This document shows positions 6,483 through 60,315 of a DNA stretch of 64,000 nt, one piece after another (position 1 is the stretch's first letter; each line of letters opens with the position of its first letter). The position numbers and the translations under genes were made by a program. Source of the stretch: Ignavibacteriales bacterium (GTDB lineage Bacteria > Bacteroidota > Ignavibacteria > UBA10030 > UBA8401); assembly GCA_026390635.1 (NCBI GenBank), contig JAPLFO010000148.1, forward strand, positions 60,080 to 124,079, given 5' to 3'. The notes under the pieces were generated by a model that was not told where the DNA came from, searched no databases, and saw only the letters and a program-made list of their open reading frames with translations.

Positions 6483-6525
6483 TCTAAAGATTTTCCATAG
6501 TGTGCGGTGATGGCAGACACAAGAA

Positions 6526-19115: not shown

Positions 19116-19350
19116 CGTACACATTGTACTCATCGTTGAGACCAGACAGACATTTCCGGGTATTGCCCGGCTGGAAGCGGCAGTCGGGTCAGCCCTGTGC
19201 CGTCCTTCCAATGCATATGACTACGGTAGCGTATTCATTGGTAAGAATCAACCGGTAACTGCTGTCAATCACAAAAGGGAGAGGTGACGACACCTCGGCC
19301 GACATGGCGAGCAACGCCGAGCCACGCTCGGTGACCGTCGAGCAAATACA

Positions 19351-27017: not shown

Positions 27018-27129
27018 TTAATGATTCTTATTAGAAAGATAATCCACAGAGGACACAGAGCAAAAGATGAGAACACAGAGAATGTTTCTCTCGTTCCCAA
27101 GCTCCGCTTGGGAACGATGCCGTACATAA

Positions 27130-31519: not shown

Positions 31520-31683
31520 GAGACTTCTGAAAAACTCCTGGATGCCGGTCATTCTGAGCGCTTCGGCTCCGCTCAGCACAAGCTCCGCGAAGAATCCATT
31601 AGTTGTTTTCAGATCACAATGATGGATTCTTCGTCGCTGCGCGACTCAGAATGACAATCCGCGATGGTTTTTCAGACGTCTCG
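31520..31683 (+). repeat. MITE-like palindromic element, family A, copy 1 (about 165 bp, 17-bp terminal inverted repeats CGAGACKTCTGAAAAAC)
   Basis: About 98% identical to the reverse complement of 41424-41588. Internal hairpins include ctgagcgcttcggctccgctcag. It starts 3 nt after the stop codon of the preceding gene. Confidence 0.8.
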
Positions 31684-36214: not shown

Positions 36215-38119
36215 CTATTCCATACCACCTGAATATTCTTTCAACGAATGAAATGTGTAACCGCGCCGCTCAAGCTCCGTCATCAGCTCATCCAATCTAT
36301 TGTACAATTTGTCTATTCTGAGCGGATGGGTGCCGAAATGAATCAGGAGAAGAAAGCCGTTCAATCCATCTCCATGATTCTTTTCAAAGGCGAGTATGCG
36401 GCGATAGAGTGTGTCGCTGGAGAGATATCGGCTGCCCATATCGGGCGTGGTATAGTCGGCATTGGAATATGTGCCTCCGGTAAAATTCACAAGTGTGAGC
36501 CCAAGTTCTTCACACCAATCAACAACTTCCCTGTTGTACCATTCATACGGCGGAAGAAAGAACGGCGAGCTTTTCATTGTAACACCAAACGGCTTCATGG
36601 CTGCGTAGTTGTCTTTGAGATCCTGCACACACTCTTCCTTTGTGACAAGCAGCGAATCCCGTTTCGCCCAATCGGCATAGAGAAGATGTTTGTCTGAGTG
36701 GCCGCCGAGATAGTGTCCGTCCTTGTGCAATCGTTCGATGAGCCATCCAAATTTCCTCTGACGGTAGAAATCACCGGTAAAGAAAAAAGACCCTTGAACG
36801 CCGTGTTTTTTCAATGTCTTTAGGATGACATCACCGCCGTCGGCGAATTCATGTCCCGTAAAGACAAGATAGATGCGTTTTTGTGTCCTGTCCAGCCGAA
36901 CGATTCCGCCATCCTCCAACGTTGCAGTGGAGAGCTGCGGCTGATTACGGTGCTTTCCAAAGAAGAACGTCAGAGATCTCCACACGCGCTGCGACCAAGC
37001 CCGTTCATTGTGCTCTGCAGCGGGATAGAATTCACTCTGGAGATCGACGCCCGGCTGATATCCCTTCGACTCAAGTAGAGAGGTCATTTCTTCGAATCCC
37101 GGTTTCAGTTGTGCATCCAGGCCAACACCGCCGTCGTCGAGATAGACGCGCATTTTCTTTTTCGGTCCGGCATAGAGACGGATTTCCTTCAGGGTCTTAT
37201 TGCTGTCAATCAGGAATGCGCTCGAGAGACATCCGGCCATGGAAAATTTTTCCGGATGCCACCACGCAAAGAGGAACGAAATCAATCCGCCCATGGAAGA
37301 TCCCATAACCGCGGTATGATCTGCATCCGGCATCGTCCGGTAGGTACTGTCGATCATCGGTTTCAAACGCCGGATGACGAAATTAACGTACGCGTGTCCT
37401 TCTTTTGTATCGGAGTACTCGGGACGGCGGCGCGGCCCGTTGTTATAGATGCCGACAATGATCGGCTCGTCGATAGCGCCCGCTTTTATCAGGCTGTCTG
37501 CAATTTCATCAACGCGCCAATCGATTTGCGTGAAAGATGTTGCCGGATCAAAAATGTTCTGGCCGTCATGCATGTAGAGCACCGGATACCGCTTCTGCAA
37601 TTTCCTGCTGTATGACGGCGGCAGCCACACGATGACGTCGCGCGGGGCAGTCAGTCCTTCGCCTTCCATAGCACGATGGTAGCGCACCGTTCCTGTAATG
37701 CCTCCGGTGGAAAGAAGTGTTCCGTCCAACCATGAGATCGGACGCAAGGTCAAGCCCGTGTCGCCCAGAACATGGATTCCGGTATTGGGCGGAATCTGTC
37801 CCTTCTGATAAATTGCCTCTGTCTTCCAACTGCCCCGGGTGATTTTGAATTCCAGATCAAAGCCGGTGGGAACTGCGAATGTCAATGACCAGAGGGAATC
37901 GTTCACACGATTCATTGTTATGCAGCTTGCGTCCCACGATGCCAATGCGTCACAATTGCCGGCAATGGTGATGATGTCGTTTTTCTTCAACGGAGCTGGC
38001 GCTATGACCGAAATGGTAACGCGCGATGTTTGTGATCGGCCAGTGGAGAGAAACGCCGGCAATACGATTGCCAAAGCGACAAGGAAACGAGGAAATGGAA
38101 GTGTCATGGCGGTAATCAT
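36215..38119 (-). CDS. Secreted multidomain carbohydrate esterase: CBM20-like starch-binding module, then an esterase (putative-esterase/enterochelin-esterase-like alpha/beta hydrolase), then a polysaccharide deacetylase (CE4-like)
   Basis: Signal peptide. The CBM-like N-terminus reads ...ITIAGNCDALASWDAS...LWSLTFAVPTGFDLEFKI. The middle domain has YPVLYMHDGQNIF...GSSMGG. The C-terminus RIYLVFTGHEFADG... is NodB-like. Confidence 0.65.
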   Translation of the reverse strand: MITAMTLPFPRFLVALAIVLPAFLSTGRSQTSRVTISVIAPAPLKKNDIITIAGNCDALASWDASCITMNRVNDSLWSLTFAVPTGFDLEFKITRGSWKTEAIYQKGQIPPNTGIHVLGDTGLTLRPISWLDGTLLSTGGITGTVRYHRAMEGEGLTAPRDVIVWLPPSYSRKLQKRYPVLYMHDGQNIFDPATSFTQIDWRVDEIADSLIKAGAIDEPIIVGIYNNGPRRRPEYSDTKEGHAYVNFVIRRLKPMIDSTYRTMPDADHTAVMGSSMGGLISFLFAWWHPEKFSMAGCLSSAFLIDSNKTLKEIRLYAGPKKKMRVYLDDGGVGLDAQLKPGFEEMTSLLESKGYQPGVDLQSEFYPAAEHNERAWSQRVWRSLTFFFGKHRNQPQLSTATLEDGGIVRLDRTQKRIYLVFTGHEFADGGDVILKTLKKHGVQGSFFFTGDFYRQRKFGWLIERLHKDGHYLGGHSDKHLLYADWAKRDSLLVTKEECVQDLKDNYAAMKPFGVTMKSSPFFLPPYEWYNREVVDWCEELGLTLVNFTGGTYSNADYTTPDMGSRYLSSDTLYRRILAFEKNHGDGLNGFLLLIHFGTHPLRIDKLYNRLDELMTELERRGYTFHSLKEYSGGME

Positions 38120-38615: not shown

Positions 38616-39903
38616 ATGATGCGAAATGGACACATTCTTCTCCTCTATTTGTTTGTCGTCGCCAGCACTGCCTCATCTCAGGAAGTGCTCATTCCATTCG
38701 ACACGCTGAAGCGCATCGACCGAATTGACGAGGGGACTTTTTCGGCTTCCCGATTCGACATATGCATGTGAAGTCTGGTACCGTGCAAACGGCCAGATTT
38801 TGAAATCAAGAACGCTTTTGTCGGCGGCGGAAGCGCAGCGCTTTCAGCAGCGCGTGGCCGAATCGCTGCGCCGGCTCGCTCCGATGGCTGGAATCGATCA
38901 AAGCGGACGGCCAACATTTCTCGGTGGTGCTTACACGCTCTCCCTCGGCCTCTACGGCTGGGGAATTCCCTATCTGCTCGGAATGGAGGGCAGTGCCGCA
39001 ATTGGAACTTACCTTCTCATCAGTGCCGGCGGCATTTTGATCGCACATTCAGCAACGGAGAGAATGGAGATTTCCGAATCAACTGCCAATCTTTCTTTCT
39101 ATGGATCGATGATGGGACTCGCACATGGCGTCATGGTCGCCATCATTGTGGGGAACAATGAAAAGATGGGCAAGGGATATGTTTCCTCTGCGATGATTTT
39201 TTCCACTCTGGAAGGAATTCTTGGATATCAGACCGGTAAGAGACTCAAGCTCTCCGGGGGCGGTGTTGAAATGCTGGGCACAATGAGCGGCGCGGGCCTT
39301 TTGTACGGATATGGCATATCGTCGCTTATGGATCAGACCAGCGCCCGGTCCATCTCGACATCGATGCTCATTGGTTCCGTTGTCGGCACAGCTGCCGGCA
39401 TGTTGATGGTGAAGGATGACTCGTACACGAACGGAGATGTCGGCGTGTTCCGCGGAGCGGCTATGCTTGGTGCATATGTGCCCATTTCCATTCTCCTTGC
39501 GGCGCATGTAGACAATTCAAAGACCTTCGTCAGCACGGCGATGATTGGAGGTCTCATTGGCGGAACTATCGGCAACTATCTTGTGAAAGGAAAGGATTTC
39601 TCAACCGCTGAAGGGACCTACATTATGTTCGGAGCTTTCGGCGGCATGTTGATCGGAGGAGGAATTCCGTTCATCGCGGGAGCGAACGGTGAAGTGGCGG
39701 CCGTGTTTAGTGCGGTCGGTTCGCTTGTCGGCTTTGTGGCAATGTATCAACGGTATGCGCCGGAAGCGGGTCAGAGAGCAACAGGCAGTTCGTTGTCATT
39801 TCAGGTGCATCCGGAGGGACTGGCTGCCATGTCGATGAGGCCGACCCTCTCTCTTCAAAATCAATGGACGACGTCGATTGTGAGTTTATCGTACCGATTC
39901 TAA
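38616..39903 (+). CDS. Hypothetical glycine-zipper-rich secreted/membrane protein; the reading frame is interrupted by one extra T in a T5 run at about 38745
   Basis: Frame 3 from ATG 38616 encodes the signal peptide MMRNGHILLLYLFVVASTASSQEVLIPFDTLKRIDRIDEGTF and stops at 38768. The long ORF (frame 1, TTG at 38725) continues RLPDSTYACEVWYRANGQ... Deleting one T from ggggactttttcgg joins the two seamlessly. Confidence 0.45.
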
Positions 39904-39930
39904 TGTATCGCGTTTCGAGCGGACAGAGGG

Positions 39931-40078
39931 TGTGAAAACTCGCGACGAAGTCATCGCGAGGAGCGAAGCGACGTGGCGATCTTTTTTTTGAATAGAAGCC
40001 AGAGTGTGCCGTTGTACGGCATCCTCTGGACTTCGGCAGAAAACGCCTCGCAATGACTAACTCCATAGTTTTCACACA
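39931..40078. repeat. MITE-like palindromic element, family B, copy 1
   Basis: Terminal inverted repeats gtgtgaaaact...agttttcacacac. The internal core tgtgccgttgtacggcatcc..tggacttcg.ca.a.aacg.ctcgcaatgac, plus gtcatcgcgagg, is shared with 61319-61455. Confidence 0.7.
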
Positions 40079-40131
40079 CTCTGAAAGCTTGGGAACGAGA
40101 AAGAATCTGCATCATCTGCGCAATCTGCCAT

Positions 40132-41379
40132 CTACACCCACCCCCGCAACTTGCATGCTTCCGCAACGCGCGCAACACCAACCACCATTGCGGCCAGTCG
40201 CGGATGGACGCGTTTCTGAACCATCGCCTGCTGTACGGAGTGGTACGCCTTCGTCAGTTTCTGATCGAGACGTTTGTGCACCAGATCTTCGTCCCAGAAG
40301 TACGAGTAACTGTCCTGCACCATTTCAAAATACGACACCGTGACGCCTCCCGCGCTTGCAAGAATATCGGGGATGACGTGCACTCCTTTGCGGAAAAGGA
40401 TCAGATCAGCCTCGGGCGTCGTGGGGCCATTGGCGAGCTCACAGACGATTTTCGCCTTGATTTTCTCGGCATTCAACTCCGAAATCGCATTTTCAAGCGC
40501 CGCCGGGTATAACACGTCCACGTCGAGCTCCAGAATTTCTTCGTGCGAAATCTGCTGCGCGCCCGGAAAACTGCGCACCGTTCCGGTTGTCAGTTTGTGT
40601 GTCACGAGATCTTTCGGATTGAATCCGTCCGGATTGTAAATGGCACCGCGCGAATCGCTGACGGCCACCAGTTTTCCCCCACCGAGAATTTCTTCATGCA
40701 GCAGCGCGGCGCGCTGTCCGGCGTTGCCGAATCCCTGAATGGCATACCGCCCGTGCGGATTCACATCGAGAATCTTACACGCCTCGCGCACGGTCGTCAC
40801 ACCGCCGCGGGCGGTCGCATCGCGCCGTCCTTCCGTACCGCCGATCTGCAACGGCTTGTCCGTAAACACACCGGGTTGATGCCGATGGACGATGGTTTCA
40901 TATTCGTCCATCATCCATGCCATTGTCTGTGGATTGGTATAGACGTCCGGCGCAGGAATGTCTTTTTCCGGGCCGATGTATTCTGCTACGGCGCGGATGT
41001 AGGCACGCGAGAGATTTTCCAGCTCGCGTTCAGAAAGTTTTTTGGGATCGCAGACAACGCCCCCCTTGCCGCCGCCAAGAGGAAGATCCACCACCGCAGT
41101 CTTCCACGTCATCCAGCTCGCAAGAGCGCGGATGATGTCCACGGTCTCGTCCGGATGAAAGCGGATACCGCCTTTGGCCGGGCCGCGCGCGAAATTGTAC
41201 TGGATCCGGTAGGCGTGAAAAATCTTCACCGATCCGTCGTCCATTTTTACCGGAAGCGTGCAGGAAAATTCCCGCTGCGGATAGCTCAGTAACTCGACCG
41301 TTGCGCGATCAAGGTTCAGCAGCTTTGCCGCTTCCGCAACCTGCTTTTGAGCGACATGAAAAGAATTATACGATTCCAT
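40132..41379 (-). CDS. Glu/Leu/Phe/Val dehydrogenase family, 415-aa glutamate dehydrogenase type
   Basis: ...[43 protein letters not shown]...; the NAD(P)-binding GFGNAG motif. Confidence 0.85.
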
Positions 41380-41423
41380 AGTCTTTGCCTTTTTGATCGC
41401 TGATTACTCAGATTTATGGATTG

Positions 41424-41588
41424 AGACGTCTGAAAAACCATCGCGGATTGTCATTCTGAGTCGCGCAGCGACGGAGAATCCATCGTTGTGATCTGAAAAC
41501 AACAAATGGATTCTTCGCGGAGCTTGTGCTGAGCGGAGCCGAAGCGCTCAGAATGACCGGCATCCAGGAGTTTTTCAGAAGTCTCGGA
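41424..41588 (-). repeat. MITE-like palindromic element, family A, copy 2 (inverted relative to copy 1)
   Basis: Its reverse complement matches 31520-31683 with 3-4 mismatches over about 165 bp. Confidence 0.8.
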
Positions 41589-41687
41589 TTACACAGCGTA
41601 TTGGTATTTATGTCTTCATCTTCGTAATCTGCGATCCATTTATTTGGCTGCAGTGCTGTTCCATTAAGTTGAATTATGAATTCTCTG

Positions 41688-41783
41688 CCCGCTTCGCCGA
41701 GCTCAGCGAGGCGAGTGCTCTCTTCTTTTTCTCTGTGCGTCACCCCGAGCGAGTGAAGCGAGTCGAGGGGCTCTGTGGCATAT
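41688..41783 (-). repeat. Intergenic repeat, family C, copy 1 (about 95 bp)
   Basis: Its reverse complement is about 95% identical to 46596-46688 (gccacagagcccctcgactcgcttc.ctcg.tcggggtgacgcacagagaaa...agagagcactcgcctcgctgagctcggcgaagcgg). Confidence 0.75.
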
Positions 41784-41805
41784 CTCTTACTTTCCATTTT
41801 ACGAT

Positions 41806-42018
41806 TCACTTGTTTTCTTGCGGTGGTAGTTGGTCGTCATGCGTGGACCGTCCCGGCGTTTCATCGCGTACATCCAGAATGATACGGTACCAGCAGTTCT
41901 TGCACATCAGCGCTTTGTCGACACTCAGCAGCACCTGTTCCCAGCGGCTCAGCTTATGCCCGCAGTGCGGACATGCTTCGTGCGATTTCTGCTTGTGAGG
42001 GGATTCACCGTTGCTCAC
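41806..42018 (-). CDS. Small zinc-ribbon protein (70 aa), speculative
   Basis: CPHCGHKLSRWEQVLLSVDKALMCKNC gives CxxC...CxxC. It overlaps the 3' end of the disrupted PPDK_N gene by 14 nt. Length and overlap make it weak. Confidence 0.3.
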   Translation of the reverse strand: MSNGESPHKQKSHEACPHCGHKLSRWEQVLLSVDKALMCKNCWYRIILDVRDETPGRSTHDDQLPPQENK

Positions 42019-45003
42019 GGGGCACCTCCGGTTTTAAAATAATGCCTTTGTTCTGGTGACCATTGATTTTAATGGTTACGGGCGATGTGAATCGAAGGTG
42101 TTTTGTAAATTCTTTCTTCTCCAGTGGAGTCTGCTGGAGCAGCCAGTCCCAATCCACCGATCCTTGATGGCTGTGCGTGTTGACACTGAAATAGCCGATC
42201 ATGAACGACGTGATGTTTTGGAAAAAATGCGACCCCTGCGAGGGTGTCACAGACATTTCCTTGAACGCTGTCTCGACAATTGCCCGCGCTCCCGAAATCT
42301 GATCCCATGCGACAGGAATACCAAGCCAGGGGTCCAATGTCCCCCAGCGCCCGACACCGATGAGCAGGTAGGGACGACTCTCTGCGATCATCTGCGAATT
42401 GAACGATGCAACCTCTGCGGCGACATCCAGGCTGCGCGACCGGTCGAAGAGATGATAATCGACGAAAACGATATCATAAATATCCTGTACCACTCCATTG
42501 CCAAGCACCTGAGCGCTTTGGCACAAGAGCTTCTCCGGGTCGTACGTTTCGACATTGAGTTCTTCCAGTTCGCGGTTGATGACAAGCGGACGCATCTGCA
42601 GAAGCCCAAACTCTCTCGGCTTTCCCGGCGGCACGGTCATGTTCACTGCAAATTCGATTTCGACCGGCGTTCCCATGCCCCACGTTCCCATGTCCAGCAG
42701 CAGTTCCAGGATCTGCGGCAGCGGGTAGAAGTTGTAGGACTTCGCCACGCCGGAGAAATCGGGATAAAAATGGCGTCGTTTTCCGGATCGTACGTGGAGC
42801 CGACATAGCGGAGCGGGCCGTCCCGCTCGGCGACGTCCAGTCCGTGTTTCATGACGAGCAGATCGTGTGTCTCCGTTCCAAAATCCGAGCTCGCATCCAG
42901 CTGGAGCGCATAAAAATCACGCTGTGTATTGTTGAGCGTCTCTTCGACAGAATGAAATTGAATAACATCCGTCGGATAGCGTGGACAGAACCGGACTGTC
43001 GCACCCCCATCCACCACCATCTTTCCGAGTCCGAGCGCTGCGGAGACGACACCGTCCGACGATGTCTGCGGCGGAAGCGGGTAGAAGTTGTAGGACTTCG
43101 CCACGCCGGAGAAATCGGGATAAAAGCGCTGCTCGTGTTTGTTGCCTACCATCTTCTGAATAATCACCGCCATTTTTTCTTCTTCCAGACGGTAGGACGT
43201 CACCTTGATGTAGTCCTTCGCCGCCTGGTAGAACGTCGACGCATAGACGCGCTTGATGCTGTTGAGCAGATCGTTGAGCCGGACAAGCGGATTGGCATGA
43301 TTGTTTGGAAGCATATACGTTTCATAGACACCCGCGAACGGATGATATTGCGAATCCTCCAGCAGACTGGATGAACGAACGGCCAGCGGTGTGTGAATAA
43401 TATCCAGGAATGCGGCAAGTTCGCCGAGAATATCTTCGGGAAATTTCACCGCCTCCAAAAAGCGCTTCGTAATTTCCTTGTTGTCGCGGCAGTTGAGTGC
43501 AAAGTTGCGAAGATTATTGTCATCCACGAATTGATCGAACACGTCTGTTCCGATGACCACGGCCGGAGGCACAGAAATCTGCACATCATCGAAACGGTCG
43601 CGGACATTATAGTCGTTGATAAGCGTGCTGACAAATCCGAGGCCGCGCGCCTTACCGCCCAGCGACCCGCCGCCGATGCGCGCGAAGCTTGTCTCCGGAT
43701 CGAACGATTCCTTGGAGAAATCGGCGATAATCCCGCGTTGGCGTATATTGCGGTAGTTGTGGAGCGAATTCACCAGATCGTTCCGCAGCGCCTCGACGGA
43801 CGGATAGTCCTCCACCCGGCGCGGACGCAATTGATGGGCCAGCCAGAATTCCGTACGGGCTTTCAGCCAGTTCGAGAAGTGATTCCGTTTTGCGTGATAT
43901 TTGACGCTCTCTTCCGGCACGATCTTCAGCTGTTCTTCGAGGGTTCGCAGGTCGGTCGCCCGGCCGACTTCCATACCGTTGTCCGTACGGAAGACAAAAT
44001 CGCCGAAACTAAAATAATGGCCCATGAACTGGCGCAGTTCGTTCAGCAGCAGCGGGGAATCTTTCAGCACGAACGCTGCACCGGTATCGTGAGCGAGCTG
44101 TTCGTTCGACGCCATATTCGAGAGCAGAAGAATCGGTACATCGGGCTGATCCTCTTTGATGGCGCGAGCGAGCGCGATGCCGGCCTGCGGATCGGCCGTT
44201 CCCATCCGCGGAAAATCGATATCGGAAATAACACCGAGCATAAATTCGCTGTACTGTTCGTAGCACGACCATGCCTCTTCATACGTCGAAGTCAGCAGAA
44301 TCTTCGGCCGGGCGCGCATCCGCAGAAACTTGTGCGTCAGGTTGATGCCTTCGGAAATCAGCCGCTGCGACTGTTTGAGCATTTCGGTATAGATAATCGG
44401 AAGAATGGAGGAATAGTATTTGACGCTGTCCTCCACGACGATAACCGTCTGCACGCCGACCATACGGGCGTCGTGCTCTACGTTCATGCGATCTTCCAGA
44501 TATTTGATGATGGCAATGATGATGCGGAAATCGCCCTGCCAGACGAACACTTTGTCGAATACCGACGCGGTGTTGCTCACCAGCAGGTATTGCAACTCCC
44601 GATTGTCGTGGGCCAGCAGCACAACCGGAATATTGATGCCCGACTCTTTTACCATGCGCGCAAACGTCACGGCATGCATGTCGTCGATGTGCAGCGTCGT
44701 GATGATGAGATCAAAGCGCCGCTCTTCCTTGGCCAGAGCGATGGCTTCGTGTCCGCTGGACACGCGGGTGAGTTCTGGAGAATGGCTTAGATTGAATCCC
44801 TGATACTCATTCCGGATTAATTCATACAGTCGGCCGTCTTCTTCAAAGAGGTAGAGATCATACAGACTGGAAACAAGAAGCACATCGCGGATGCGCAATC
44901 GCATCAGGTTCTGAAATCCTTGGAACCGATTGCCGTATCCGTGCTCGACCAGAAGGGTATCGAGCGCATTGACAACGTCGTCATTTTTCTTGCGCATGGG
45001 CAT
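42005..45003 (-). pseudogene. Disrupted paralog of the REC-REC-PPDK_N (PEP-utilising ATP-grasp) protein: ORFs 42643-45003 and 42005-42748 together span the full-length homolog
   Basis: The 786-aa ORF aligns to residues about 1-760 of the intact 1004-aa paralog. It then leaves frame at a second copy of a 49-bp exact repeat (gcgggtagaagttgtaggacttcgccacgccggagaaatcgggataaaa; copy A 43078-43126, copy B 42722-42770). The 247-aa ORF resumes the homology (AKSYNFYPLPQILELLLDMGTWGMGTPVEIEF...) in another frame. About 20 aa are missing relative to the paralog. Confidence 0.6.
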
Positions 45004-45140
45004 AGTACAAAAGACCTGACAGGTGTTTATAGCAAGCGTCCGACACCTCCTTGATTCGCAATGGCTGCTGATGCTATCAATATTTCAAAATAGAAGCCAG
45101 CGTTCTACGGAAGAGATGTCGGACACTTTGCGACACGCTA

Positions 45141-46547
<1,407 letters not shown>

Positions 46548-46595
46548 TCAGAGCAAATCTGACCGCTCTGATTAAATCATGAAAGAAAGACTTTG

Positions 46596-46688
46596 CCACA
46601 GAGCCCCTCGACTCGCTTCGCTCGTTCGGGGTGACGCACAGAGAAAGAGAAGAGAGCACTCGCCTCGCTGAGCTCGGCGAAGCGGACG
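46596..46688 (+). repeat. Intergenic repeat, family C, copy 2
   Basis: See 41688-41783. CACAGAG/CTCTGTG heptamers follow immediately at 46703-46742. Confidence 0.75.
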
Positions 46689-46795
46689 GAGAATGCAGAT
46701 CAGCCTCTGTGTTCTCGTCTTTTGTCCTCTGTGTTCTCCGTGACTATCTTTTTATGCTAAGCAATTACAATGCTGCACACTATATATCACTCTGC

Positions 46796-49700
46796 TTATT
46801 GTGGCTTGAGAATGACGCCTTTGTTCTTATGCCCGTTGATTTTCGCCGTCAGGGGCCTATCAAACCGGAGATGGCGAGTATATTCCAGCTCCTCGACGGC
46901 CGGCTGCTCCTGCAGCCATTCCCAGTCGATGAAGCCGAGGTTCAAAAAAGAATTCACCGTAAAATAGCCGACGCGGAACGACGTGATATTCTGGAAGAAG
47001 TGCGATCCCTGCGACGGCGTCACATTGAAATCCTTGAATCCTGATTCCACAATCACGCTGGCGCCTGAAATCTGATCCCACGACACCGGGATACCGAGCC
47101 AATGATCGAGACTTCCCCACCGGCCGACACCGATCAGAATGTACGGACGCTTCTCCGTCAGCAGTTTTGCATTCATTGCACTGACCTCGAGCGCCACCTC
47201 TTTCGAACGCAGCCGCTCGAACTTCTGAATATCGACACATACAATGTCGTAGAGATCCTTGATGACCCCGTTCCCGAGCACCTGGTCGCTCTGGCAAATG
47301 CTGCTGCCTTTCGATGCCTCGTCCACATCGAGCTCTTCCAGTTCATGACTCAACACCAGAGGACGCATCTGCAGCATGGCAAATTCGTTCGGTTTCTCCG
47401 GTGGCATGCCCATCGATGCGGCGAATTCGATCTCCACCGGAGTGCCCATTCCCCACGTTCCCATATCCAGCATCATTTGCAGAATTTCCGGCAGAGGAAA
47501 AATCTTGTGTTTGAGAATCGGCGAAAACGTCACGACGCGTTTCCCGGCACGGGAGATGCCGTCGTACACCGAGTCGTTCTCCGCCGAGTACGTGGAACCA
47601 ACATAGTACAGTGTTTGATCCTCTTCCGCCTTGCTCAGATCGTACTTGCGTACAAATTTATCGGGCGTATGGTGCCCCTCCTTCAAGATGCCTTCTGAAA
47701 GATCCAACGCATAGAAATCCTGTTGTGCATTTTTGATCGTATCGTTCGTGGAGAAAAACTGCATCAGATGGCGGGGATACTTTGGACAGAATCTGACAGT
47801 ATTCCCTCCATCGACCACCGTTTTTCCCAATCCAAGAGCCACAAGTACAATACCATCCTCGGATGATTGCGGAGGAACCGGATAGAAGTTATAGGACTTT
47901 GCCACTCCGGCAAAATCGGGATAGAATCGTCCGTGATGCTCGGCTCCGACCATCCGCTGGATAATCACCGCCATTTTTTCTTCTTCCAGGCGGTACGCCG
48001 TGGCCTTCATGTAGTCTTTTGCAGCTTTGAGAAACGTCGAGGCATACACCAGTCGGACGCTTTCCAGGAGTTCCTGCAGGCGCACCGCATGATCCGGATT
48101 GTTGTTCGGGATCATGAAGGTTTCGTAAACACCCGCAAAGGGCTGGAATTGCGAATCCTCCAGCAGGCTGGACGACCGGACCGCCAGAGGTTCGTGAATG
48201 ATCGCCAGAAATTCCGACAAGCGGCTTTTTATTTCCGCCGGGAATCTGTCCGCTTCCAAAAAGCGTTTCCGGATTTCATCGTCGCCGGCGGTGCTCAGCG
48301 AAAGATTCTCCAGCCGGTTTTCTTCAATGAAGCGATCGAAGATGTCCGTCGCAATGACAACCGCGGACGGGACAGACACTTCCACATCCGGAAAGCGGTT
48401 ACGGACACTGTAGGTGTTGATCAGCGTATTGATGAAGCCAAGTCCGCGGGCTTTTCCGCCCAGCGATCCGCCGCCGATGCGTGCAAAGCTGTTGCGCGGA
48501 TCGAATGTTTCTTTTGAAAACTCGGTGATGGTTCCGCGCTGGCGCACTTCACGGTATTTCTGCAGGGACGTAATCAGCTCGTTGCGCAGATCGGCAGTCG
48601 ACGCAAAATCGGTCACCTTGTGCGGCCGCAAACGGTGGGCCAGCCAGAATTCCGTACGGGCTTTGAGCCAGTTTGAGAAATGATTTCTCTCCGCATGATA
48701 CACGATGGACTCATCCGGCACGCGGCGGAGTTGATCTTCCAGGGCACCGAGATTACTCGCGCGGCCGACTTCCTGGCCATCCGCTGTTCTGAATGTGAAA
48801 TCGCCGAAGCCGAAGTGGCTTTTCATGAACTCGCGCAACTCATGGAGCAGGCGCGGCGAACCTTTCTGCAGGAATGAAGCGCCTATCTCCTTCGCAACAC
48901 CGGCAAACTCGGCGTTGCTGGATTGCAGCAGGATGGGAATATCTTCATGCTGTTTTTTCACATTGCGCGCGAAGGTGATTCCCGCTTCCGGATCTTTCAC
49001 GCCGTTCCGCTTGAAATTGACGTCCGAAATAATCCCGAGAATAAATTCCTGATACTTCTCATAGTACGACCATGCTTCCTCGTACGTCGTGCAGAGTAGG
49101 ATTTTCGGACGGGCTTTCATCCGCAGCATCTTGTGCGTGATGTTGATACCTTCCTGAATCAGGCGCTGCGATTGATTGAGAATTTCAGTATAGATGAGGG
49201 GAAGATAGGAGGAATAGAACTTCACATCGTCTTCAACCAGGATGATCGACTGGACGCCGACGGTCATGGTATCGTTTTCGACGTTCAGCCGGTCTTCCAC
49301 GCATTTGATGATGCCGATCAGGAGGCGGAAGTCTCCCTGCCAGATAAAGATCCTGTCAAAAATGGTTGTGTCATAGTTCGTGACAATGTCTTTCCGCTCG
49401 CGGTTGTCGTATGCAAGCAGCACGATCGGAATCTGCAATCCCACCTGCCGCACCATCTGTGCGAACTTGATGACGTGCATATCTTCGATATGCAACGTGG
49501 TAATGATGAGATCAAAAGTATTCTCGACGGTGGCCAGCTCGATCGCTTCAGCGCCGCTGGTGGCATGGGTGATTTCCGGAGGGTGGCTCAGATTCAGCAC
49601 CTGCGATTCCTGGCGGATCAGTTCATAGAGCCGTCCGTCTTCCTCAAACAGGTAGTCGTCGTAGAGACTGGAGACAAGAAGCACGTCGCGGATTTTGTGC

Positions 49701-49810
49701 CGCATCAATTTCTGGAATGTCTTGATGCGGCTTCCGTAAAGGTCTTCTATCGTAAGATGATCTATTTTACTCATGATCGGCCGGACGATACCGTTCAGAC
49801 TGCTCGGCAA
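46796..49810 (-). CDS. Large protein with two N-terminal receiver-like (REC/pseudo-receiver) domains and a C-terminal PEP-utilising-enzyme nucleotide-binding ATP-grasp domain (PPDK_N)
   Basis: 1004 aa. N-terminus ...IRDVLLVSSLYDDYLFEEDG... and ...SIILVEDDVKFYSSYLPLIYTEI... (CheY-like folds). C-terminal half ...IGGGSLGGKARGLGF...AVRSSSLLEDSQFQPFAGVYETFMIPN...GTPVEIEFA...MLQMRPLV matches the pyruvate phosphate dikinase / PEP synthase PEP-pyruvate-binding domain. No phosphohistidine or PEP-utilizer C-domain is evident. Confidence 0.7.
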   Translation of the reverse strand: MPSSLNGIVRPIMSKIDHLTIEDLYGSRIKTFQKLMRHKIRDVLLVSSLYDDYLFEEDGRLYELIRQESQVLNLSHPPEITHATSGAEAIELATVENTFDLIITTLHIEDMHVIKFAQMVRQVGLQIPIVLLAYDNRERKDIVTNYDTTIFDRIFIWQGDFRLLIGIIKCVEDRLNVENDTMTVGVQSIILVEDDVKFYSSYLPLIYTEILNQSQRLIQEGINITHKMLRMKARPKILLCTTYEEAWSYYEKYQEFILGIISDVNFKRNGVKDPEAGITFARNVKKQHEDIPILLQSSNAEFAGVAKEIGASFLQKGSPRLLHELREFMKSHFGFGDFTFRTADGQEVGRASNLGALEDQLRRVPDESIVYHAERNHFSNWLKARTEFWLAHRLRPHKVTDFASTADLRNELITSLQKYREVRQRGTITEFSKETFDPRNSFARIGGGSLGGKARGLGFINTLINTYSVRNRFPDVEVSVPSAVVIATDIFDRFIEENRLENLSLSTAGDDEIRKRFLEADRFPAEIKSRLSEFLAIIHEPLAVRSSSLLEDSQFQPFAGVYETFMIPNNNPDHAVRLQELLESVRLVYASTFLKAAKDYMKATAYRLEEEKMAVIIQRMVGAEHHGRFYPDFAGVAKSYNFYPVPPQSSEDGIVLVALGLGKTVVDGGNTVRFCPKYPRHLMQFFSTNDTIKNAQQDFYALDLSEGILKEGHHTPDKFVRKYDLSKAEEDQTLYYVGSTYSAENDSVYDGISRAGKRVVTFSPILKHKIFPLPEILQMMLDMGTWGMGTPVEIEFAASMGMPPEKPNEFAMLQMRPLVLSHELEELDVDEASKGSSICQSDQVLGNGVIKDLYDIVCVDIQKFERLRSKEVALEVSAMNAKLLTEKRPYILIGVGRWGSLDHWLGIPVSWDQISGASVIVESGFKDFNVTPSQGSHFFQNITSFRVGYFTVNSFLNLGFIDWEWLQEQPAVEELEYTRHLRFDRPLTAKINGHKNKGVILKPQ

Positions 49811-49884
49811 TGCCGTCTGGAATCATAGAATGTGCGGGGATGAGTTATCCCGCTTGTCCCGCACATTCTATAACATTCCTTGCG

Positions 49885-51225
49885 CTACACCAACCCCTGA
49901 TCCATCATCGCATCTGCAACCTTCAGGAATCCGCCGATATTCGCACCGTTCACATAGTTGCCCGGAGTTCCGTACTTTTCCGCGTTTTCAAGACAGGTCT
50001 TATGAATATTTATCATGATCTGATGCAGCCGCTGATCGACTTCTTCTTTCGGCCAGGGAAGCCGCATGCTGTTCTGGCTCATTTCCAATCCGGAGGTGGC
50101 AACACCGCCGGCGTTCGATGCCTTTCCCGGCGAGTAGAGCACTCCGGCTTCATGGAGTACTTTCACGCCGGAAAGTGTCGTCGGCATGTTTGCGCCTTCA
50201 CACACACAGTAGCAGCCGTTTTTCAATAGTTCTTTCGCATCGCTATCGTCCAACTCATTCTGCGTCGCACACGGCAGCGCGACGTCCACTTTCACTCCCC
50301 ACGGTCGTTTGCCGGGATGGAACTCAACCTTGAAGTGATCTGCATAATCCTTCACGCTATCCCGTGCGCTGGCACGCATTTGCAGCATGTAGTCGATCTT
50401 TTCCCCTTTGATGCCTTCTTTGTCAAACACAAAACCGTCGGGACCTGACAGCGTCACCACTTTTGCACCGAGTTGTGTCGCCTTCTGCACGGCGCCCCAT
50501 GCAACATTGCCGAATCCGGATACGGCAACAGCCTTGTCGTCGAACGTTTGGCCGCGGGTCTTCAACATCTCCTGTGCAAAATAGACGACACCGAATCCTG
50601 TCGCTTCCGGACGAATCAGCGAGCCGCCCCAATTCAATCCTTTTCCGGTGAGGACGCCGGAGAACTCTTTGGTCAATCGCTTATATTGTCCAAACAGATA
50701 ACCGATTTCGCGGCCGCCGACCCCGATGTCGCCGGCGGGGACGTCGATGTCGGGTCCGACATGACGGTACAATTCCGTCATAAAGCTCTGGCAGAACCGC
50801 ATTACTTCATGATCGCTCTTTCCTTTGGGATCGAAATCGGAGCCGCCCTTACCGCCGCCCATCGGCAGCGACGTGAGGCTGTTTTTAAAGACTTGTTCGA
50901 ACGCAAGAAATTTTAGTATACCCAGCGTGACTGAAGGATGGAAGCGAAGTCCGCCCTTGTACGGTCCGATGGCACTGTTCATTTGAATACGGAAGCCGCG
51001 ATTGATCTGGAACTCTCCCTGATCATCCATCCACGGTACACGAAACATGATGACGCGTTCCGGCTCGACCATGCGTTCGAGTATTTTTGCCGAGCGATAT
51101 TCAGGATGGCGTGCAATTACCAATTCCAGGGATCCGACAACCTCTTCGACTGCTTGATGAAATTCGGGTTCGTTTGAATTTTTTGCTTTGACTTGTGCTA
51201 CTACATTTTGAATATATTCAGACAT
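49885..51225 (-). CDS. gdhA: NADP-specific glutamate dehydrogenase (GdhA type), second copy
   Basis: 446 aa, about 70% identical to the 45141-46502 product, with the same GGGKGG and nucleotide-binding motifs. Confidence 0.9.
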   Translation of the reverse strand: MSEYIQNVVAQVKAKNSNEPEFHQAVEEVVGSLELVIARHPEYRSAKILERMVEPERVIMFRVPWMDDQGEFQINRGFRIQMNSAIGPYKGGLRFHPSVTLGILKFLAFEQVFKNSLTSLPMGGGKGGSDFDPKGKSDHEVMRFCQSFMTELYRHVGPDIDVPAGDIGVGGREIGYLFGQYKRLTKEFSGVLTGKGLNWGGSLIRPEATGFGVVYFAQEMLKTRGQTFDDKAVAVSGFGNVAWGAVQKATQLGAKVVTLSGPDGFVFDKEGIKGEKIDYMLQMRASARDSVKDYADHFKVEFHPGKRPWGVKVDVALPCATQNELDDSDAKELLKNGCYCVCEGANMPTTLSGVKVLHEAGVLYSPGKASNAGGVATSGLEMSQNSMRLPWPKEEVDQRLHQIMINIHKTCLENAEKYGTPGNYVNGANIGGFLKVADAMMDQGLV

Positions 51226-51640
51226 AACAACCTCACCATAAACTACACTTTGTGATTTAGTGTGATAATATAGAACGTTTTTACTGCCGATGCAACTTCA
51301 GCTATTTTCCCGATATTGCGCATTTTTAGCCACAAGGTTGACTTTCCCTTACTGTTTGTAGAATTCGGAGTGCCCCACCTTTGGAAATCGAAAGATTTCT
51401 GCGACTTTCTAATTAGAATTTACGGCATATTATTTGCTTCAAACTAGTGGGGTCAACAATAGAATCGAGGGTAGTGGTATGATGTGGTTGGCAGGCTTTG
51501 CAGTGTATGCGTGTGTGGTATTTCTCTTCCTCCGGTTTTTCCGATTTGTTTCGCAGGTGGATGAGGATGTTGAACGGATGCGGGAAAGTACTTTGCAGTA
51601 AAAACGCCGGAAATGCCATATTGGTGATGTTGGCGCAGTT

Positions 51641-52978
51641 TTATTCCTGAGCCCACCCGGAGGTGGTATTTCCTATTTCGCCCTTTTCTTCCGTTTCGAA
51701 CGAGATCAGGACTTTGTCCACTCGATGGCCGTCCATGTCCACGACCTCGTAGCGCCTCCCGTCGAGAACAAAATGGTCTGCGACCGTCGGTATCCGCCCG
51801 AGGTACATGATCACAAACCCGCCTACAGTCTGATAGTGGCCTTCCGCATCCCCCGGAAGATCCCCAATTTCGAACAACTCTTTGAATTCCTGGATGGGCA
51901 TCATGCCGCTGATGAGCCATGTGCCGTCCTCCCGCTGAATGGATTTTGGGTCGTGCTCTTCGTCCACCGATGGAAGCTCGCCGATGATTGCCTCCAGAAT
52001 ATTCGTCAGCGTCACCAGCCCTTGAATGCTGCCGTATTCATCAACCACCATTGCAACATGAGGATGCGTTTTTCTGAACAGATCCAGCAGTTTCATCGCC
52101 GGCGTGTTTTCAGGAACGAACAGCGGTGGATGGAGGATGTTCTTCAGATCGATAATCTGATGCCTGAGTGAGAGGCTGAGAAGCTCTTTTGCCTGCACAA
52201 CACCAAGCACATTTTCGAGCGTTCCCTGGCAGACCGGAAAACTGGAATAGCCGCTGTCGCCCACTTTCTCCTGAATCGTTTCTAGAGAATCCGCAACATC
52301 GAACCAGATGAGTTTCACACGCGGTGTCATGACAGAAGAGACGTTCAGATCTCCAAGACGAAATACACCCTCCACAATTTCCTGTTCTGATTTTTCAAAC
52401 ACACCCGCCTGTGTTCCCTGATCGATCATAACACGGATCTCTTCTTCCGTTACCGGAGATTCCTCTGTCTTCCGTATGCGCAGAATCTTCAGGACGGTAT
52501 TTGTCGAAAGACTCAGAAAGCGCACGACCGGCCTGGCCACGCGGGAAATCGTCAGCAGCATTGGCGCCAACGCGACGGCGTATCGTTCCGGGTTCGTCAA
52601 TGCAATGCGCTTCGGTCCGAGTTCACCGATGATGAGTGTCAAATACGAGATGCCGACGACAACGGCGCCGTTTGCCAGCACGACCGCATACGATGAAAAT
52701 ACCGGCACCCTGGACAGCACAACGCTCAACCGTTCAGCAAATGTCGCGCCGCCGAACACGCCGGCAAGAATACCGACGGACGTCATGCCGATCTGCACCG
52801 TGGACAGAAACGCGGACGGGTCTTTGAGAAGTTCGAGGGCGACTGCCGCTTTGCGGTTCCCTTCGTCCGCCCACTGCTGCAGACGGGCTTTGCGGGACGC
52901 AATGATGGAGATCTCTGCAAGAGCAAAAAAGCCGCTCGCACAGAAGAGGATGAACATCAAAATAATTTCGAGGATCAT
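51641..52978 (-). CDS. Hemolysin-family / CNNM-type transporter (DUF21, CBS pair, CorC_HlyC)
   Basis: N-terminal 4-TM DUF21, then tandem CBS domains, then the C-terminal transporter-associated domain. Confidence 0.8.
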   Translation of the reverse strand: MILEIILMFILFCASGFFALAEISIIASRKARLQQWADEGNRKAAVALELLKDPSAFLSTVQIGMTSVGILAGVFGGATFAERLSVVLSRVPVFSSYAVVLANGAVVVGISYLTLIIGELGPKRIALTNPERYAVALAPMLLTISRVARPVVRFLSLSTNTVLKILRIRKTEESPVTEEEIRVMIDQGTQAGVFEKSEQEIVEGVFRLGDLNVSSVMTPRVKLIWFDVADSLETIQEKVGDSGYSSFPVCQGTLENVLGVVQAKELLSLSLRHQIIDLKNILHPPLFVPENTPAMKLLDLFRKTHPHVAMVVDEYGSIQGLVTLTNILEAIIGELPSVDEEHDPKSIQREDGTWLISGMMPIQEFKELFEIGDLPGDAEGHYQTVGGFVIMYLGRIPTVADHFVLDGRRYEVVDMDGHRVDKVLISFETEEKGEIGNTTSGWAQE

Positions 52979-58574: not shown

Positions 58575-59429
58575 TTACTCTTCTCCGTATGCTTTCACGT
58601 TGTATCTAATGTCCTTCAGCGTGAACCGCCCGTACGTAAAATCACCTTCCGGATAGTTCCAGATCGTTTCTCCGTATGTCGGAATTCTTCTTCCGTCGAT
58701 TTCCTTATAGTCCCGGAGCGGTGTCGACCATCGTGCTTTTCTCAGAGACCCGTCATCCTGCAATGCGGATCTGTCTTCTGACACAAAATTGACAAGTTCT
58801 CCCTTGGTGTTGAAATAGAGTATTGCCGACACGTTGTACGGACCATTTTCCATGCTCACCTGGACAGAAAGAGAATCGATCTCTTTCCAGGAAAGTCGTT
58901 TGTCAATGAGATTTCCAGGAACAAACAGGCACATATCATTTAGTAAGGTAACGGTCTCGGCTGTCGTCAGATCTTTTCCTGCAATATCAACAGCATTGAA
59001 GAGTGATGCAATCCTAACCACGAATGTCGCTTTCTGATCAGCGTAGATATGCAATACCCGAAATGGAACCAGAAACTTGCTTGCTTTCATGAAGAAAAGA
59101 CGGGCAGGACTGCCACAAAAATTGTACTGCTCGGATTGTGCCTCCAGCGGAGCCGCGCCCGGCCGCTGTATCATTTGGGCATCAAACACTACGCGCACAT
59201 TCTGCGGTTTGCTTTTTCCAACTGCACCGGCATAGACAAGGTATTTTTGCACCGGAGCGGGCAGGTGCACTATGTCAGATTCAGTAAGAATCTCTTCGGG
59301 TGCCGGCGGCTGTTTGGCAAATTCTTTCTTCACTTTGGATATGTATTCGCTCTGAACGGAACCACACCCAGAAAATGCTGCAAGAGATGCAACGGCGATA
59401 CCGGTTGCAACAAGAATGAGCCTATCCAT
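58575..59429 (-). CDS. Hypothetical lipoprotein
   Basis: MDRLILVATGIAVASLAAFSGC lipobox (start 59429); no recognised domain. Confidence 0.5.
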   Translation of the reverse strand: MDRLILVATGIAVASLAAFSGCGSVQSEYISKVKKEFAKQPPAPEEILTESDIVHLPAPVQKYLVYAGAVGKSKPQNVRVVFDAQMIQRPGAAPLEAQSEQYNFCGSPARLFFMKASKFLVPFRVLHIYADQKATFVVRIASLFNAVDIAGKDLTTAETVTLLNDMCLFVPGNLIDKRLSWKEIDSLSVQVSMENGPYNVSAILYFNTKGELVNFVSEDRSALQDDGSLRKARWSTPLRDYKEIDGRRIPTYGETIWNYPEGDFTYGRFTLKDIRYNVKAYGEE

Positions 59430-60315
59430 TGTATTTATCCTTTTGCACAAGGCGATTTTCTTCATAATGTCGTACGACGTAGACAAATCCAACAAAGACG
59501 ATTAGTGCAAGCATGAGAAACACGATCATATCCCGCATCAAGAACGTCGGATCATTCTTCAGGAGCATCACAAGTCCCATTGCATTGACCGCAACGATCA
59601 TCGTGAGAAAGAAACCATAGAACATGAATTGAATCGGATACGTGGTATTTGGCCTTGTCCAGAGTAGATAGACACTGATGAAACCCAACGGAATTGAAAA
59701 TCCCAGATCAAAAATTCGTACCAACCAAAAGGCAGCCGGTGCAAGATCATACGCACGCGCAGTACCGGTTGACATTACTTCTTGAATTTCCTGGATCCAC
59801 ATGGAGGCAAATATCAGAAGAAAGAATGAAAACAGAAAAGAGTATAGAACAAGTCCCTTCCTCTTGAAATTGCTCTGTACGTTTTTGGGAAATATTGAAA
59901 GCGAATACAGCAGCAACACAAGAGAAGAAATCAGTATGAAAAGAAAGTGGTAAGTATACAATTCGCTATTGCCGGTGTATTTCGACGCGCTCCATTCCCA
60001 ACCAATTGTGTAGCTCAAAACATAGTAGATTAAATACAGAGGCGTCATAATGAGAAGGTAGCGAGATATTTGTTTTTTGAAGAATAGTCCAACGCCGCCA
60101 ATAATCAGCATGGGACTCAAGAGGAATATGTTGACGATGTCCTGTCCGATCAGCTGATTGTTGATGATCTCTGCTGTTTTATATCGTATGTGATGATGGA
60201 ACAGCGGACCTTCGATCGCCAGGTAGATCAGCGTGATGCCGGTCGTGATTGCGAGCAGCGACGCAATGATCCTTTCAAATGTGTTTCCGAACGTGCTATC
60301 ACGATTAGTATGCAT
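59422..60315 (-). CDS. Hypothetical polytopic membrane protein
   Basis: 297 aa with about 8 hydrophobic segments. Its stop region overlaps the start of the downstream lipoprotein gene by 8 nt, so the two are probably co-transcribed. Confidence 0.5.
   Translation of the reverse strand: MHTNRDSTFGNTFERIIASLLAITTGITLIYLAIEGPLFHHHIRYKTAEIINNQLIGQDIVNIFLLSPMLIIGGVGLFFKKQISRYLLIMTPLYLIYYVLSYTIGWEWSASKYTGNSELYTYHFLFILISSLVLLLYSLSIFPKNVQSNFKRKGLVLYSFLFSFFLLIFASMWIQEIQEVMSTGTARAYDLAPAAFWLVRIFDLGFSIPLGFISVYLLWTRPNTTYPIQFMFYGFFLTMIVAVNAMGLVMLLKNDPTFLMRDMIVFLMLALIVFVGFVYVVRHYEENRLVQKDKYNG

Follow-up and report, generated by a model that had tools for sequence, protein, structure and literature searches.

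A gene cluster in a 64,000-nucleotide (nt) stretch of the genome of an Ignavibacteriales bacterium (contig JAPLFO010000148.1, positions 60,080 to 124,079; hereafter the window) raises the question of why genes for glutamate dehydrogenase (GDH) should be interleaved, twice over, with genes for a large protein that unites signalling-type domains with an ATP-dependent catalytic core. We use the label BIG, coined here, for this ~1000-amino-acid (aa) signalling-type enzyme, and BIG1 and BIG2 for its two copies in the window. GDH is situated at the junction of carbon and nitrogen metabolism, and its control in the bacteria that have been studied is mainly transcriptional or allosteric. The BIG family is uncharacterised and widespread, and, to our knowledge, nitrogen regulation in the phyla that carry it is poorly understood.

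The linkage of glutamate dehydrogenase and BIG

The cluster comprises six genes, all on the minus strand, in the order GDH1, BIG1, GDH2, a broken BIG2, a zinc-ribbon open reading frame (ORF) and GDH3, with successive intergenic gaps of 110, 293, 137, -14 and 426 nt. These positions and this order agree with an earlier reading of the same DNA made from its letters and ORF translations (hereafter the sequence-only reading). GDH1 (49885..51225; 446 aa) and GDH2 (45141..46502; 453 aa) lie directly upstream of BIG1 and BIG2, across the gaps of 110 and 137 nt, respectively. Pfam detects ELFV_dehydrog_N and ELFV_dehydrog in all three GDHs; GDH1 and GDH2 are NADP-type GdhA proteins that pass the NCBIfam model for NADP-specific GDH (NF006929) with 753.3 and 758.1 bits against a cut-off of 536. 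GDH3 (40132..41379; 415 aa), a short hexameric-type GDH, falls under every NCBIfam equivalog cut-off, the best being GdhA_Arch with 576.8 bits against 750. BIG1 can be read as 1004 codons from a TTG at 49810 (46796..49810); because its homologues are ~993 aa long, we place the start at the ATG at 49774, which gives a likely gene of 992 aa (46796..49774). The zinc-ribbon ORF (41806..42018; 70 aa) has the signature CxxC-x19-CxxC (CPHCG…x19…CKNCWYRI), overlaps the end of BIG2 by 14 nt and is kept downstream of a BIG gene in 11 fetched loci. A scan of 39900-51700 for sigma-70 promoters and terminators yielded matches at the shuffled expectation and is uninformative on operon structure.

GDH1 and GDH2 are 68.7% identical in protein sequence, whereas GDH3 is only 29% identical to either, and BIG1 and BIG2 are 62% identical. 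As the copies of the duplicated GDH/BIG unit are only ~70% identical at the DNA level, the unit represents an old duplication, and we rejected the possibility of an assembly duplicate. The sequence-only reading, which had put the two GdhA copies at about 70% identity, the large proteins at a comparable divergence, and the pairing down to an old duplicated unit, is borne out on each count, both copies being found also in related Ignavibacteria. Indeed, three contigs of related Ignavibacteria (L001-L003) display the order GDH (446 aa), BIG (993-997 aa), GDH (453 aa), an intact BIG2 (1003-1007 aa), a small protein (66-67 aa) and GDH (415 aa), while the genes flanking the six-gene cluster differ completely among these contigs. 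In the relatives, the GDH1 type always precedes the BIG1 type and the GDH2 type precedes the BIG2 type; in other phyla, BIG is adjoined by a GDH2-like type.

The closest homologues of BIG1 are labelled as Ignavibacteria or “Bacteroidota” metagenome-assembled genomes. The family as a whole is far larger, with 5,186 representatives of 50%-identity clusters at E<=1e-3 and 1,292 at E<=1e-30, and a motif scan that took one genome from each GTDB species recovered at least 594 confirmed BIG loci. Linkage was counted in the best 80 of these, which span at least 10 phyla (Ignavibacteria, Calditrichia, Zixibacteria, Acidobacteriota, Eisenbacteria, Krumholzibacteria, Gemmatimonadota, Planctomycetota, Fibrobacteres, Myxococcota, Bdellovibrionota, Chlorobiota and Bacteroidales), with GDH located by tblastn. 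In 48 of the 80 loci, BIG and a GDH gene are no more than 600 nt apart, with GDH directly upstream and on the same strand in 36 of these; another 12 have a GDH within 10 kb, for a total of 60/80. All-against-all clustering of the flanking ORFs likewise singles out GDH (54/80 loci), with the next neighbour family reaching only 8/80; no other conserved neighbour and no conserved histidine kinase gene were found near BIG in these loci. By our own estimate, a random gene would have a GDH within 10 kb in ~1% of cases, given 1-3 GDH genes among a few thousand genes. Since the order recurs in L001-L003 amid different flanks and GDH is the sole conserved neighbour in the 80 loci, the arrangement is not a product of chance: the linkage is far beyond it, and chance adjacency is rejected. 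Thus, the co-occurrence with gdhA that the sequence-only reading had put forward for checking extends across many phyla and is not a peculiarity of this contig.

Some individual loci merit separate mention. In L091, a restriction-modification island (3880-9709; N6_N4_Mtase, RhuM and ResIII) separates the BIG and GDH genes, which were probably adjacent before its insertion. In a Phycisphaerales contig (L085, 5000-17378), the surroundings of BIG include a GDH3-type gene, another PPDK_N protein of 763 aa and genes resembling proB/proA (AA_kinase+PUA and Aldedh); in a Bacteroidales-type contig without an adjacent GDH (L084, 3918-5129), an ammonium transporter is encoded three genes upstream. Both add a glutamate or nitrogen context to BIG. 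The BIG-linked GDH2-type proteins are 72-87% identical across Acidobacteriota, Planctomycetota and Myxococcota (e.g., L025 8434-9792 and L043 8514-9872), against only 58% to Escherichia coli GdhA and 45-55% among the neighbouring BIG proteins. Judged by these sequence identities, this suggests either that this GDH subfamily is under unusual constraint or that the module has spread laterally. Compared with E. coli GdhA and GDH1, GDH2 has 7 extra residues inserted, and this insertion is variable among GDH2-type proteins.

Domain anatomy of the BIG proteins

From the N to the C terminus, BIG1 consists of a pseudo-receiver, a receiver, a DUF5752/OrfY-like domain, a PPDK_N ATP-grasp domain and a C-terminal swivel-like His domain. 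PPDK_N, Response_reg and DUF5752 are detected by Pfam in both BIG1 and BIG2, and both Pfam and the family alignment uphold the view that receiver-type domains are joined to a PPDK_N ATP-grasp in the large proteins. Conservation was assessed in an alignment of 57 sequences, each representing a 50%-identity cluster, which are 33-56% identical to BIG1 and colinear with it over the full length. The full-length AlphaFold (AF2) model of BIG1, built from a shallow alignment, has an overall predicted local distance difference test (pLDDT) score of 67.7, which falls below 50 in residues 883-940.

The first receiver-type domain (REC1; 49265..49690, ~residues 29-170) is matched by Pfam Response_reg with 33.5 bits and has an alpha/beta pattern in the full-length model (pLDDT 74-92). 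Despite this match, it is a pseudo-receiver, because the position of the phospho-acceptor, residue 93, is Thr in BIG1 and M/T/S across the family, and the acidic pair has become Ser-Ser. The second (REC2; 48815..49249, ~residues 176-320) is matched only weakly by Response_reg (E 0.018), yet it keeps E181-D182 along with D251 (codon 49022-49024; 50/57 representatives), S285 (52/57) and K304 (54/57). Seven representatives have E, S, N, C or G in place of D251, and in all seven D182 is replaced as well, while K441, R533, E783, Q802, R885, E910, S921 and H925 of the downstream domains are all retained. Of the two receiver-like domains noticed earlier, therefore, the alignment counts bear out one as canonical, whereas the other has lost its acceptor.

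The third domain (48485..48802, ~residues 325-430), with an invariant W369, is modelled with a pLDDT of 83-91. The whole of BIG1 only just passes the gathering score of PF19027 (DUF5752) with 23.8 bits against 23; taken by itself, the domain reaches 31.4 bits, and among 22 such domains isolated from family members, 20 match this model with a best E of 1.9e-9. A profile of the domain also matches 4CSO_A in the PDB, described as the Thermoproteus tenax “OrfY protein, transcription factor” (E 2.2e-8). DUF5752 is a putative sensor or interaction domain in BIG. As an observation in its own right, its homology to the OrfY repeat ties a domain of unknown function to a structure that its depositors call a transcription factor.

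The ATP-grasp domain (47297..48484, ~residues 431-826) is recognised by Pfam PPDK_N (PF01326) with E values of 5.8e-40 in BIG1 and 7.6e-35 in BIG2. K441 (in GGK), R533, E783 and Q802 are invariant in the 57 representatives, R804 is found in 55, and the R533-S534-S535 stretch and E781/E783 are invariant or nearly so. These residues presumably correspond to K22, R92, D321/E323, Q335 and R337 of pyruvate phosphate dikinase (PPDK), which are ligands of ATP, Mg and phosphate. The PDB sequence matches of the domain are to the ATP-grasp of rifampin phosphotransferase (RPH; 5HV6/5FBS).

The most conserved stretch of the entire protein lies in the C-terminal domain (46799..47296, residues 827-992), in the form of the motifs G884-R885-W-G and PSQG[ST]H925FFQN (His codon 47000-47002). 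G884, R885, E910, S921 and H925 are invariant in the 57 representatives, G923 is also listed as invariant, and 148 further homologues all have a motif of the form S.G[STAG]HFF. Because the full-length model is poor at residues 883-940, residues 801-992 were remodelled on a diverse alignment of 150 sequences, with a resulting pLDDT of 86.6 and a predicted template modelling score of 0.86. The model has a predicted swivelling beta/beta/alpha fold, in which a strand and a loop lead into a helix that opens with His925; we take this position to be that of the TSH histidine in PPDK. The structures listed for the model are headed by a Bacillus pyruvate kinase with a C-terminal domain of the phosphoenolpyruvate (PEP)-utiliser type (2e28, score 7.1) and the isolated phosphoryl-carrier domain of PPDK (2fm4, 7.0, with 106 of 128 residues aligned), followed by maize PPDK (1vbg, 6.8), a DRTGG domain (2ioj, 6.8), the Enzyme I (EI) N-terminal domain (5woy, 6.5) and RPH (5hv1, 6.3); lower in the list are more EI and EI-Ntr entries, alongside further families that have the swivelling beta/beta/alpha fold. 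A Foldseek search of the domain against the PDB gave no significant match, and no proteins with the canonical GGxTSH motif are encoded in the fetched loci or the window. Comparison with swivel domains by eye offers, as a lead only, a colinear series comprising a G-x-G hairpin, an ILV strand, S/T-D-P-x-W, an A-x-x-IV-E/T strand, G-S/T-H and a helix. The sequence-only reading saw no recognisable swivel His domain in these proteins, which holds for sequence profiles; nevertheless, the model and the invariant His925 indicate that a diverged one is probably present. Thus, predicted fold and residue invariance, rather than demonstrated homology, suggest that the C-terminal domain is probably of swivel type, though enlarged and strongly diverged, with His925 as its likely phospho-carrier.

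The same core is also found in a second architecture. In L035 (13822-18739, minus strand) and L083 (354-3533, minus strand), proteins of 1060-1110 aa adjoin GDH3-type genes and combine the BIG-type ATP-grasp with a “GPGRWGS…FG-T-HFFQ” domain; apparently similar ORFs are present in L030 and L074. These proteins differ from BIG in an unrelated N-terminus of ~340 aa and an extra C-terminal NTP_transf_2 nucleotidyltransferase domain, the latter presumably of the same fold class as GlnE and GlnD. The N-terminal 340 aa have no Pfam match, and a suspicion by eye of a GAF domain was not confirmed. Beside one of these proteins, L035 additionally codes for a core-only protein of 578 aa without receivers, which is 41% identical to BIG1 residues 413-988. 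In light of this second architecture, the ATP-grasp and His-domain core can be seen as a module that is coupled to varying sensor or effector domains and is repeatedly placed beside two GDH classes.

A proposed phosphotransfer system and its alternatives

The domain anatomy, the conservation of the catalytic residues and of the histidine, the predicted fold, the cross-phylum linkage to GDH and the paralogue-specific pairing are established here; beyond them, we infer that His925 is phosphorylated, that the receiver gates this reaction and that GDH is its target. In the mechanism that we propose, the PPDK_N ATP-grasp would use ATP to phosphorylate His925 on the swivel-type domain, passing through a pyrophosphoryl intermediate as PPDK and PEP synthase do. 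The N-terminal block of pseudo-receiver, Asp251 receiver and DUF5752/OrfY-like domain would gate this step upon phosphorylation or a ligand signal. The phospho-His domain would then hand the phosphoryl group to an acceptor outside BIG, most likely the partner GDH; alternatively, the phospho-form of BIG might bind and modulate GDH. In either form, the NADP-linked assimilatory and the catabolic GDH activities would be switched such that no futile cycle arises, a risk that two NADP-type GDHs and a third GDH class could be expected to pose unless they are controlled post-translationally. Gene context points to GDH as the direct target of BIG acting as a signal-gated ATP-to-His phosphotransfer enzyme, a reading that we advance tentatively and with slightly less than even confidence. 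In its main lines, this agrees with the sequence-only reading, which suggested a signal-controlled phosphotransfer or kinase-like activity that might modify GDH or a metabolite. The presence of two BIG paralogues, each with a GDH of its own, favours partner-specific recognition over a shared metabolite, and the co-segregation of GDH1 with BIG1 and of GDH2 with BIG2 is what would be expected of specific enzyme-regulator pairs.

The proposed logic has parallels in well-known systems in which a regulator, often encoded beside its target, covalently switches a branch-point enzyme, namely, GlnE with glutamine synthetase, AceK with isocitrate dehydrogenase, and PpsR/PDRP with PEP synthase/PPDK. BIG would act in a similar way on its partner enzyme (ppsR adjoins ppsA in E. 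coli), although it has no homology to these regulators. As a nitrogen-linked sensor with a predicted phospho-His domain, BIG presumably also resembles EI-Ntr (PtsP). However, EI-Ntr is charged by PEP through a triosephosphate isomerase (TIM) barrel and passes its phosphate to NPr, whereas BIG has an ATP-grasp, a receiver and DUF5752 in place of GAF, and no NPr-like partner gene. A precedent for the regulation of a metabolic enzyme by a domain of this kind is offered by Bacillus subtilis PykA, which is regulated by an attached PEP-utiliser-type domain (PMC9009071); there, the domain is fused to the regulated enzyme and has no ATP-grasp of its own, whereas BIG is a separate protein encoded beside the enzyme. 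A stronger version of our proposal, in which BIG would be the first ATP-driven enzyme dedicated to the covalent regulation of bacterial GDH, a receiver-gated “GDH dikinase” deployed in hundreds of species, strikes us as rather unlikely as it stands. Much less likely still is a bolder variant of it in which the phospho-His of BIG activates the 2-oxoglutarate carbonyl, so that GDH and BIG would together form an ATP-driven, high-affinity ammonium-assimilating unit.

Several observations weigh against BIG being a phospho-His enzyme that acts on GDH. No conserved Ser/Thr/His/Tyr phospho-acceptor specific to BIG-linked GDHs is discernible in an alignment of 62 GDHs with E. coli GdhA. For the C-terminal domain, Pfam returned nothing even at E<=10, an hmmsearch of the PDB with the domain profile was equally negative, and hhalign against the His domains of E. 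coli PpsA, PtsI and PtsP gave a probability of 0.3% with the histidines unaligned. No GDH lies within 10 kb in 14 of the 80 loci, all of them with full flanks (flanks are incomplete in another 6), and in a Bacteroidales-type clade, ~40% identical, BIG occurs in unrelated contexts without an adjacent GDH. In the window itself, the second GDH/BIG module may be inactive, as BIG2 is broken, if its lesion is real. Finally, the characterised enzymes that combine an ATP-grasp and a swivel His domain without a TIM barrel act on small molecules or glucans and on no proteins (PMC4844700, PMC12167813, PMC13553574).

The last of these points leads to the alternative that BIG is a small-molecule dikinase, in which case the beta-phosphate of ATP would pass by way of His925 to a metabolite, such as a glutamate/2-oxoglutarate compound or a cofactor, with GDH being merely a pathway neighbour. 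The nearest characterised enzymes are RPH (PMC4844700), PigC/HapC (PMC13534948), HpeHI (PMC12167813) and glucan water dikinase (PMC13553574), and every characterised member of this class without a TIM barrel has a small molecule or a glucan as its substrate; moreover, the closest relatives of the BIG ATP-grasp are the models for PigC, RedH, PEP synthase and RPH and the RPH structures. The core of ATP-grasp and swivel His, the latter predicted in BIG, is indeed common to BIG and to RPH, PigC/RedH/HapC, HpeHI and MarK. However, BIG falls far under the cut-offs of the corresponding NCBIfam models (35.6 bits against 999 for RPH, NF041857, and 68.3 against 1300 for PigC, NF052631), and its ATP-grasp, which extends to residue 826, directly precedes the His domain, and nothing in the protein corresponds to the domain by which RPH or HpeH binds its acceptor. 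The rest of the protein is of signalling type, its N-terminus consisting of two receiver-type domains and DUF5752, while the His domain, ~165 aa long and with two insertions, does not resemble PEP-utilizers in sequence. Unlike the catabolic or resistance contexts of the RPH-type dikinases, the genomic partner of BIG is an enzyme of primary metabolism, and two BIGs each with its own GDH paralogue are hard to explain by a common metabolite. On balance, we regard a small-molecule substrate as an unlikely explanation.

Less probable again is a self-contained phosphorelay, in which the ATP-grasp and His925 would serve as an unconventional histidine kinase for BIG's own Asp251, and the phospho-receiver would regulate GDH or another target by binding, leaving that target covalently unmodified. 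In its favour, His925 and a canonical receiver Asp are present in one polypeptide, no conserved histidine kinase gene is found nearby, and one record (P0077) names a homologue “histidine kinase”. Against this, the receiver Asp cannot be an obligatory final acceptor, because Asp251 and D182 are replaced in 7 of the 57 representatives that keep the ATP-grasp residues and H925, and because core-only proteins without receivers, such as that of 578 aa in L035, exist. Like response regulators with an enzymatic output, BIG has its receivers N-terminal to the enzyme domain; it differs from them in having a pseudo-receiver in first place and, in the second domain, an Asp that some lineages do without.

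To an equally low likelihood we assign the possibility that BIG is a nitrogen- or carbon-status signalling protein with a target other than GDH, the two being brought together only by a shared regulon or joint horizontal transfer. The gaps of 110-290 nt leave space for separate promoters, and BIG is found without an adjacent GDH in Bacteroidales-type genomes, in one case near an ammonium transporter. This alternative does not readily account for immediate adjacency in 48 of 80 species from at least 10 phyla with no other conserved neighbour, for the co-segregation of paralogue types, or for the independent tie of a different architecture on the same core to another GDH class.

Lastly, the idea that BIG is an ordinary housekeeping PEP synthase or PPDK for gluconeogenesis from glutamate is very improbable: several records call homologues “phosphoenolpyruvate synthase”, and the window has genes for enolase and phosphoglucomutase a few kb upstream, but these neighbours are not conserved in L001-L003, the TIGR01418 PEP_synth model gives 48.5 bits against a cut-off of 739.75, and there is no match to PEP-utilizers (PF00391, the mobile domain with the GG-x-T-S/C-H motif) or to PEP-utilizers_C, the pyruvate/PEP-binding TIM barrel. 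What BIG has in common with these enzymes is the set of ATP-grasp catalytic residues (GGK, R-S-S, E-x-E and Q-x-R) and, as far as the model predicts, a swivel His domain; the order of sensor block, ATP-grasp and His domain is its own. Because it has no PEP-utilizers_C domain and ends in a His domain of ~165 aa, a canonical PEP synthase or PPDK identity, which the sequence-only reading had named as fatal to its proposal, is rejected, and those homologues that are annotated as “PEP synthase” are wrongly so (others are called “PEP/pyruvate-binding domain protein” or “CheY-like”).

The disrupted copy, its surroundings and the wider significance

BIG2 (42005..45003) is split into two ORFs, 42643-45003 (786 aa) and 42005-42748 (247 aa). 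Its lesion, at 42720..42769 on the minus strand, is an exact 50-nt copy of 43076-43125, encoding FYPDFSGVAKSYNFYP, which takes the place of ~72 nt of coding sequence present in relatives and shifts the frame. The sequence-only reading was accordingly right in calling BIG2 a disrupted paralogue; a simple frameshift, however, does not describe a 50-nt copy that replaces ~72 nt. From its sequence, the direct repeat looks like a template-switch or gene-conversion patch or else a chimeric assembly, so that BIG2 here would be either a pseudogene or a local assembly artefact. In the closest relative (P0001, 93% identical), the contig stops just past BIG1.

The region between the zinc-ribbon gene and GDH3 (41380..41805) is made up of ~426 nt of dispersed repeat elements, compared with a spacer of 5 nt in relatives. 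Copies are present at 31520-31682 (98% identical) and in the BIG1-GDH2 spacer at 46581-46697 (91.5%), with a weaker one at 27032-27080. These intergenic repeats, which resemble miniature inverted-repeat transposable elements, are 91-98% identical and occur in both orientations; two of them have lengthened spacers within the GDH cluster relative to relatives, and the P0001 contig ends at the corresponding spot. An ORF of 131 aa within the repeat spacer (41414-41809) was rejected as a real gene; it has no homologue and no Pfam or NCBIfam match and is probably spurious.

The rest of the window is ordinary chromosome, with genes for resistance-nodulation-division (RND) and MacB efflux, secreted proteins sorted by the type IX secretion system (T9SS), two PilB-like ATPases, UvrB, peptidases, enolase, phosphoglucomutase and a CNNM/CorC transporter; scans of the whole window for tRNAs and Rfam families were negative. 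The two paralogous T2SSE/PilB-type secretion ATPases are encoded close together (20066-21757 and 22550-24253, minus strand), with several T9SS-sorted proteins near them (7823-10579, 15437-16702 and 16824-19211); all of these are ordinary for the Fibrobacteres-Chlorobi-Bacteroidetes (FCB) group, which the T9SS sorting domains also fit. A CBM20-esterase gene overlaps the GDH3 stop by 4 nt in L002 (19049-20218) and L003 (13329-14498), and a larger CBM20-esterase-polysaccharide deacetylase gene is situated 2 kb downstream of GDH3 in the window (36215-38119). DUF4921 and phosphoglucomutase genes are found upstream both in the window and in L087. Together, these genes hint at a loose glucan-metabolism neighbourhood that is particular to this lineage. 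Three ORFs have no Pfam match: 1872-3242 (plus strand, 456 aa), 59422-60315 (minus strand, 297 aa) and 38725-39903 (plus strand, 392 aa), the last of which is flanked by GDH3 and the CBM20-esterase gene, runs on the opposite strand and also has no NCBIfam match.

With regard to earlier work, a census lists the pairing of REC and pyruvate phosphate dikinase as Bacteroides-like; it names the fusion only and describes no function, His domain or GDH linkage (PMC5847659). No description of a GDH link of BIG was found in the full-text literature searched, although most subscription journals were outside its coverage, such that a prior description is possible; nor did that literature describe a dedicated or BIG-like covalent modifying enzyme for any bacterial GDH. 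Thus, the domain fusion has already been catalogued, its linkage to GDH is apparently new, and the earlier impression that the arrangement is not a described system holds for the literature searched.

More generally, the BIG proteins present a large and strongly conserved family with genes beside GDH in many phyla, several of which are abundant in soils and sediments, and their predicted C-terminal domain suggests that phospho-His swivel domains can escape sequence profiles. If BIG does control GDH, it would constitute a new regulatory layer for ammonium assimilation, thousands of annotations would be corrected, and a protein-directed, receiver-gated branch would be added to the ATP-grasp/swivel-His dikinase superfamily. 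Were the stronger notion of a “GDH dikinase” to prove true, an unseen post-translational switch would operate on both ammonium assimilation and glutamate catabolism in the Acidobacteriota, Ignavibacteriota, Gemmatimonadota, Planctomycetota, Myxococcota and other lineages.

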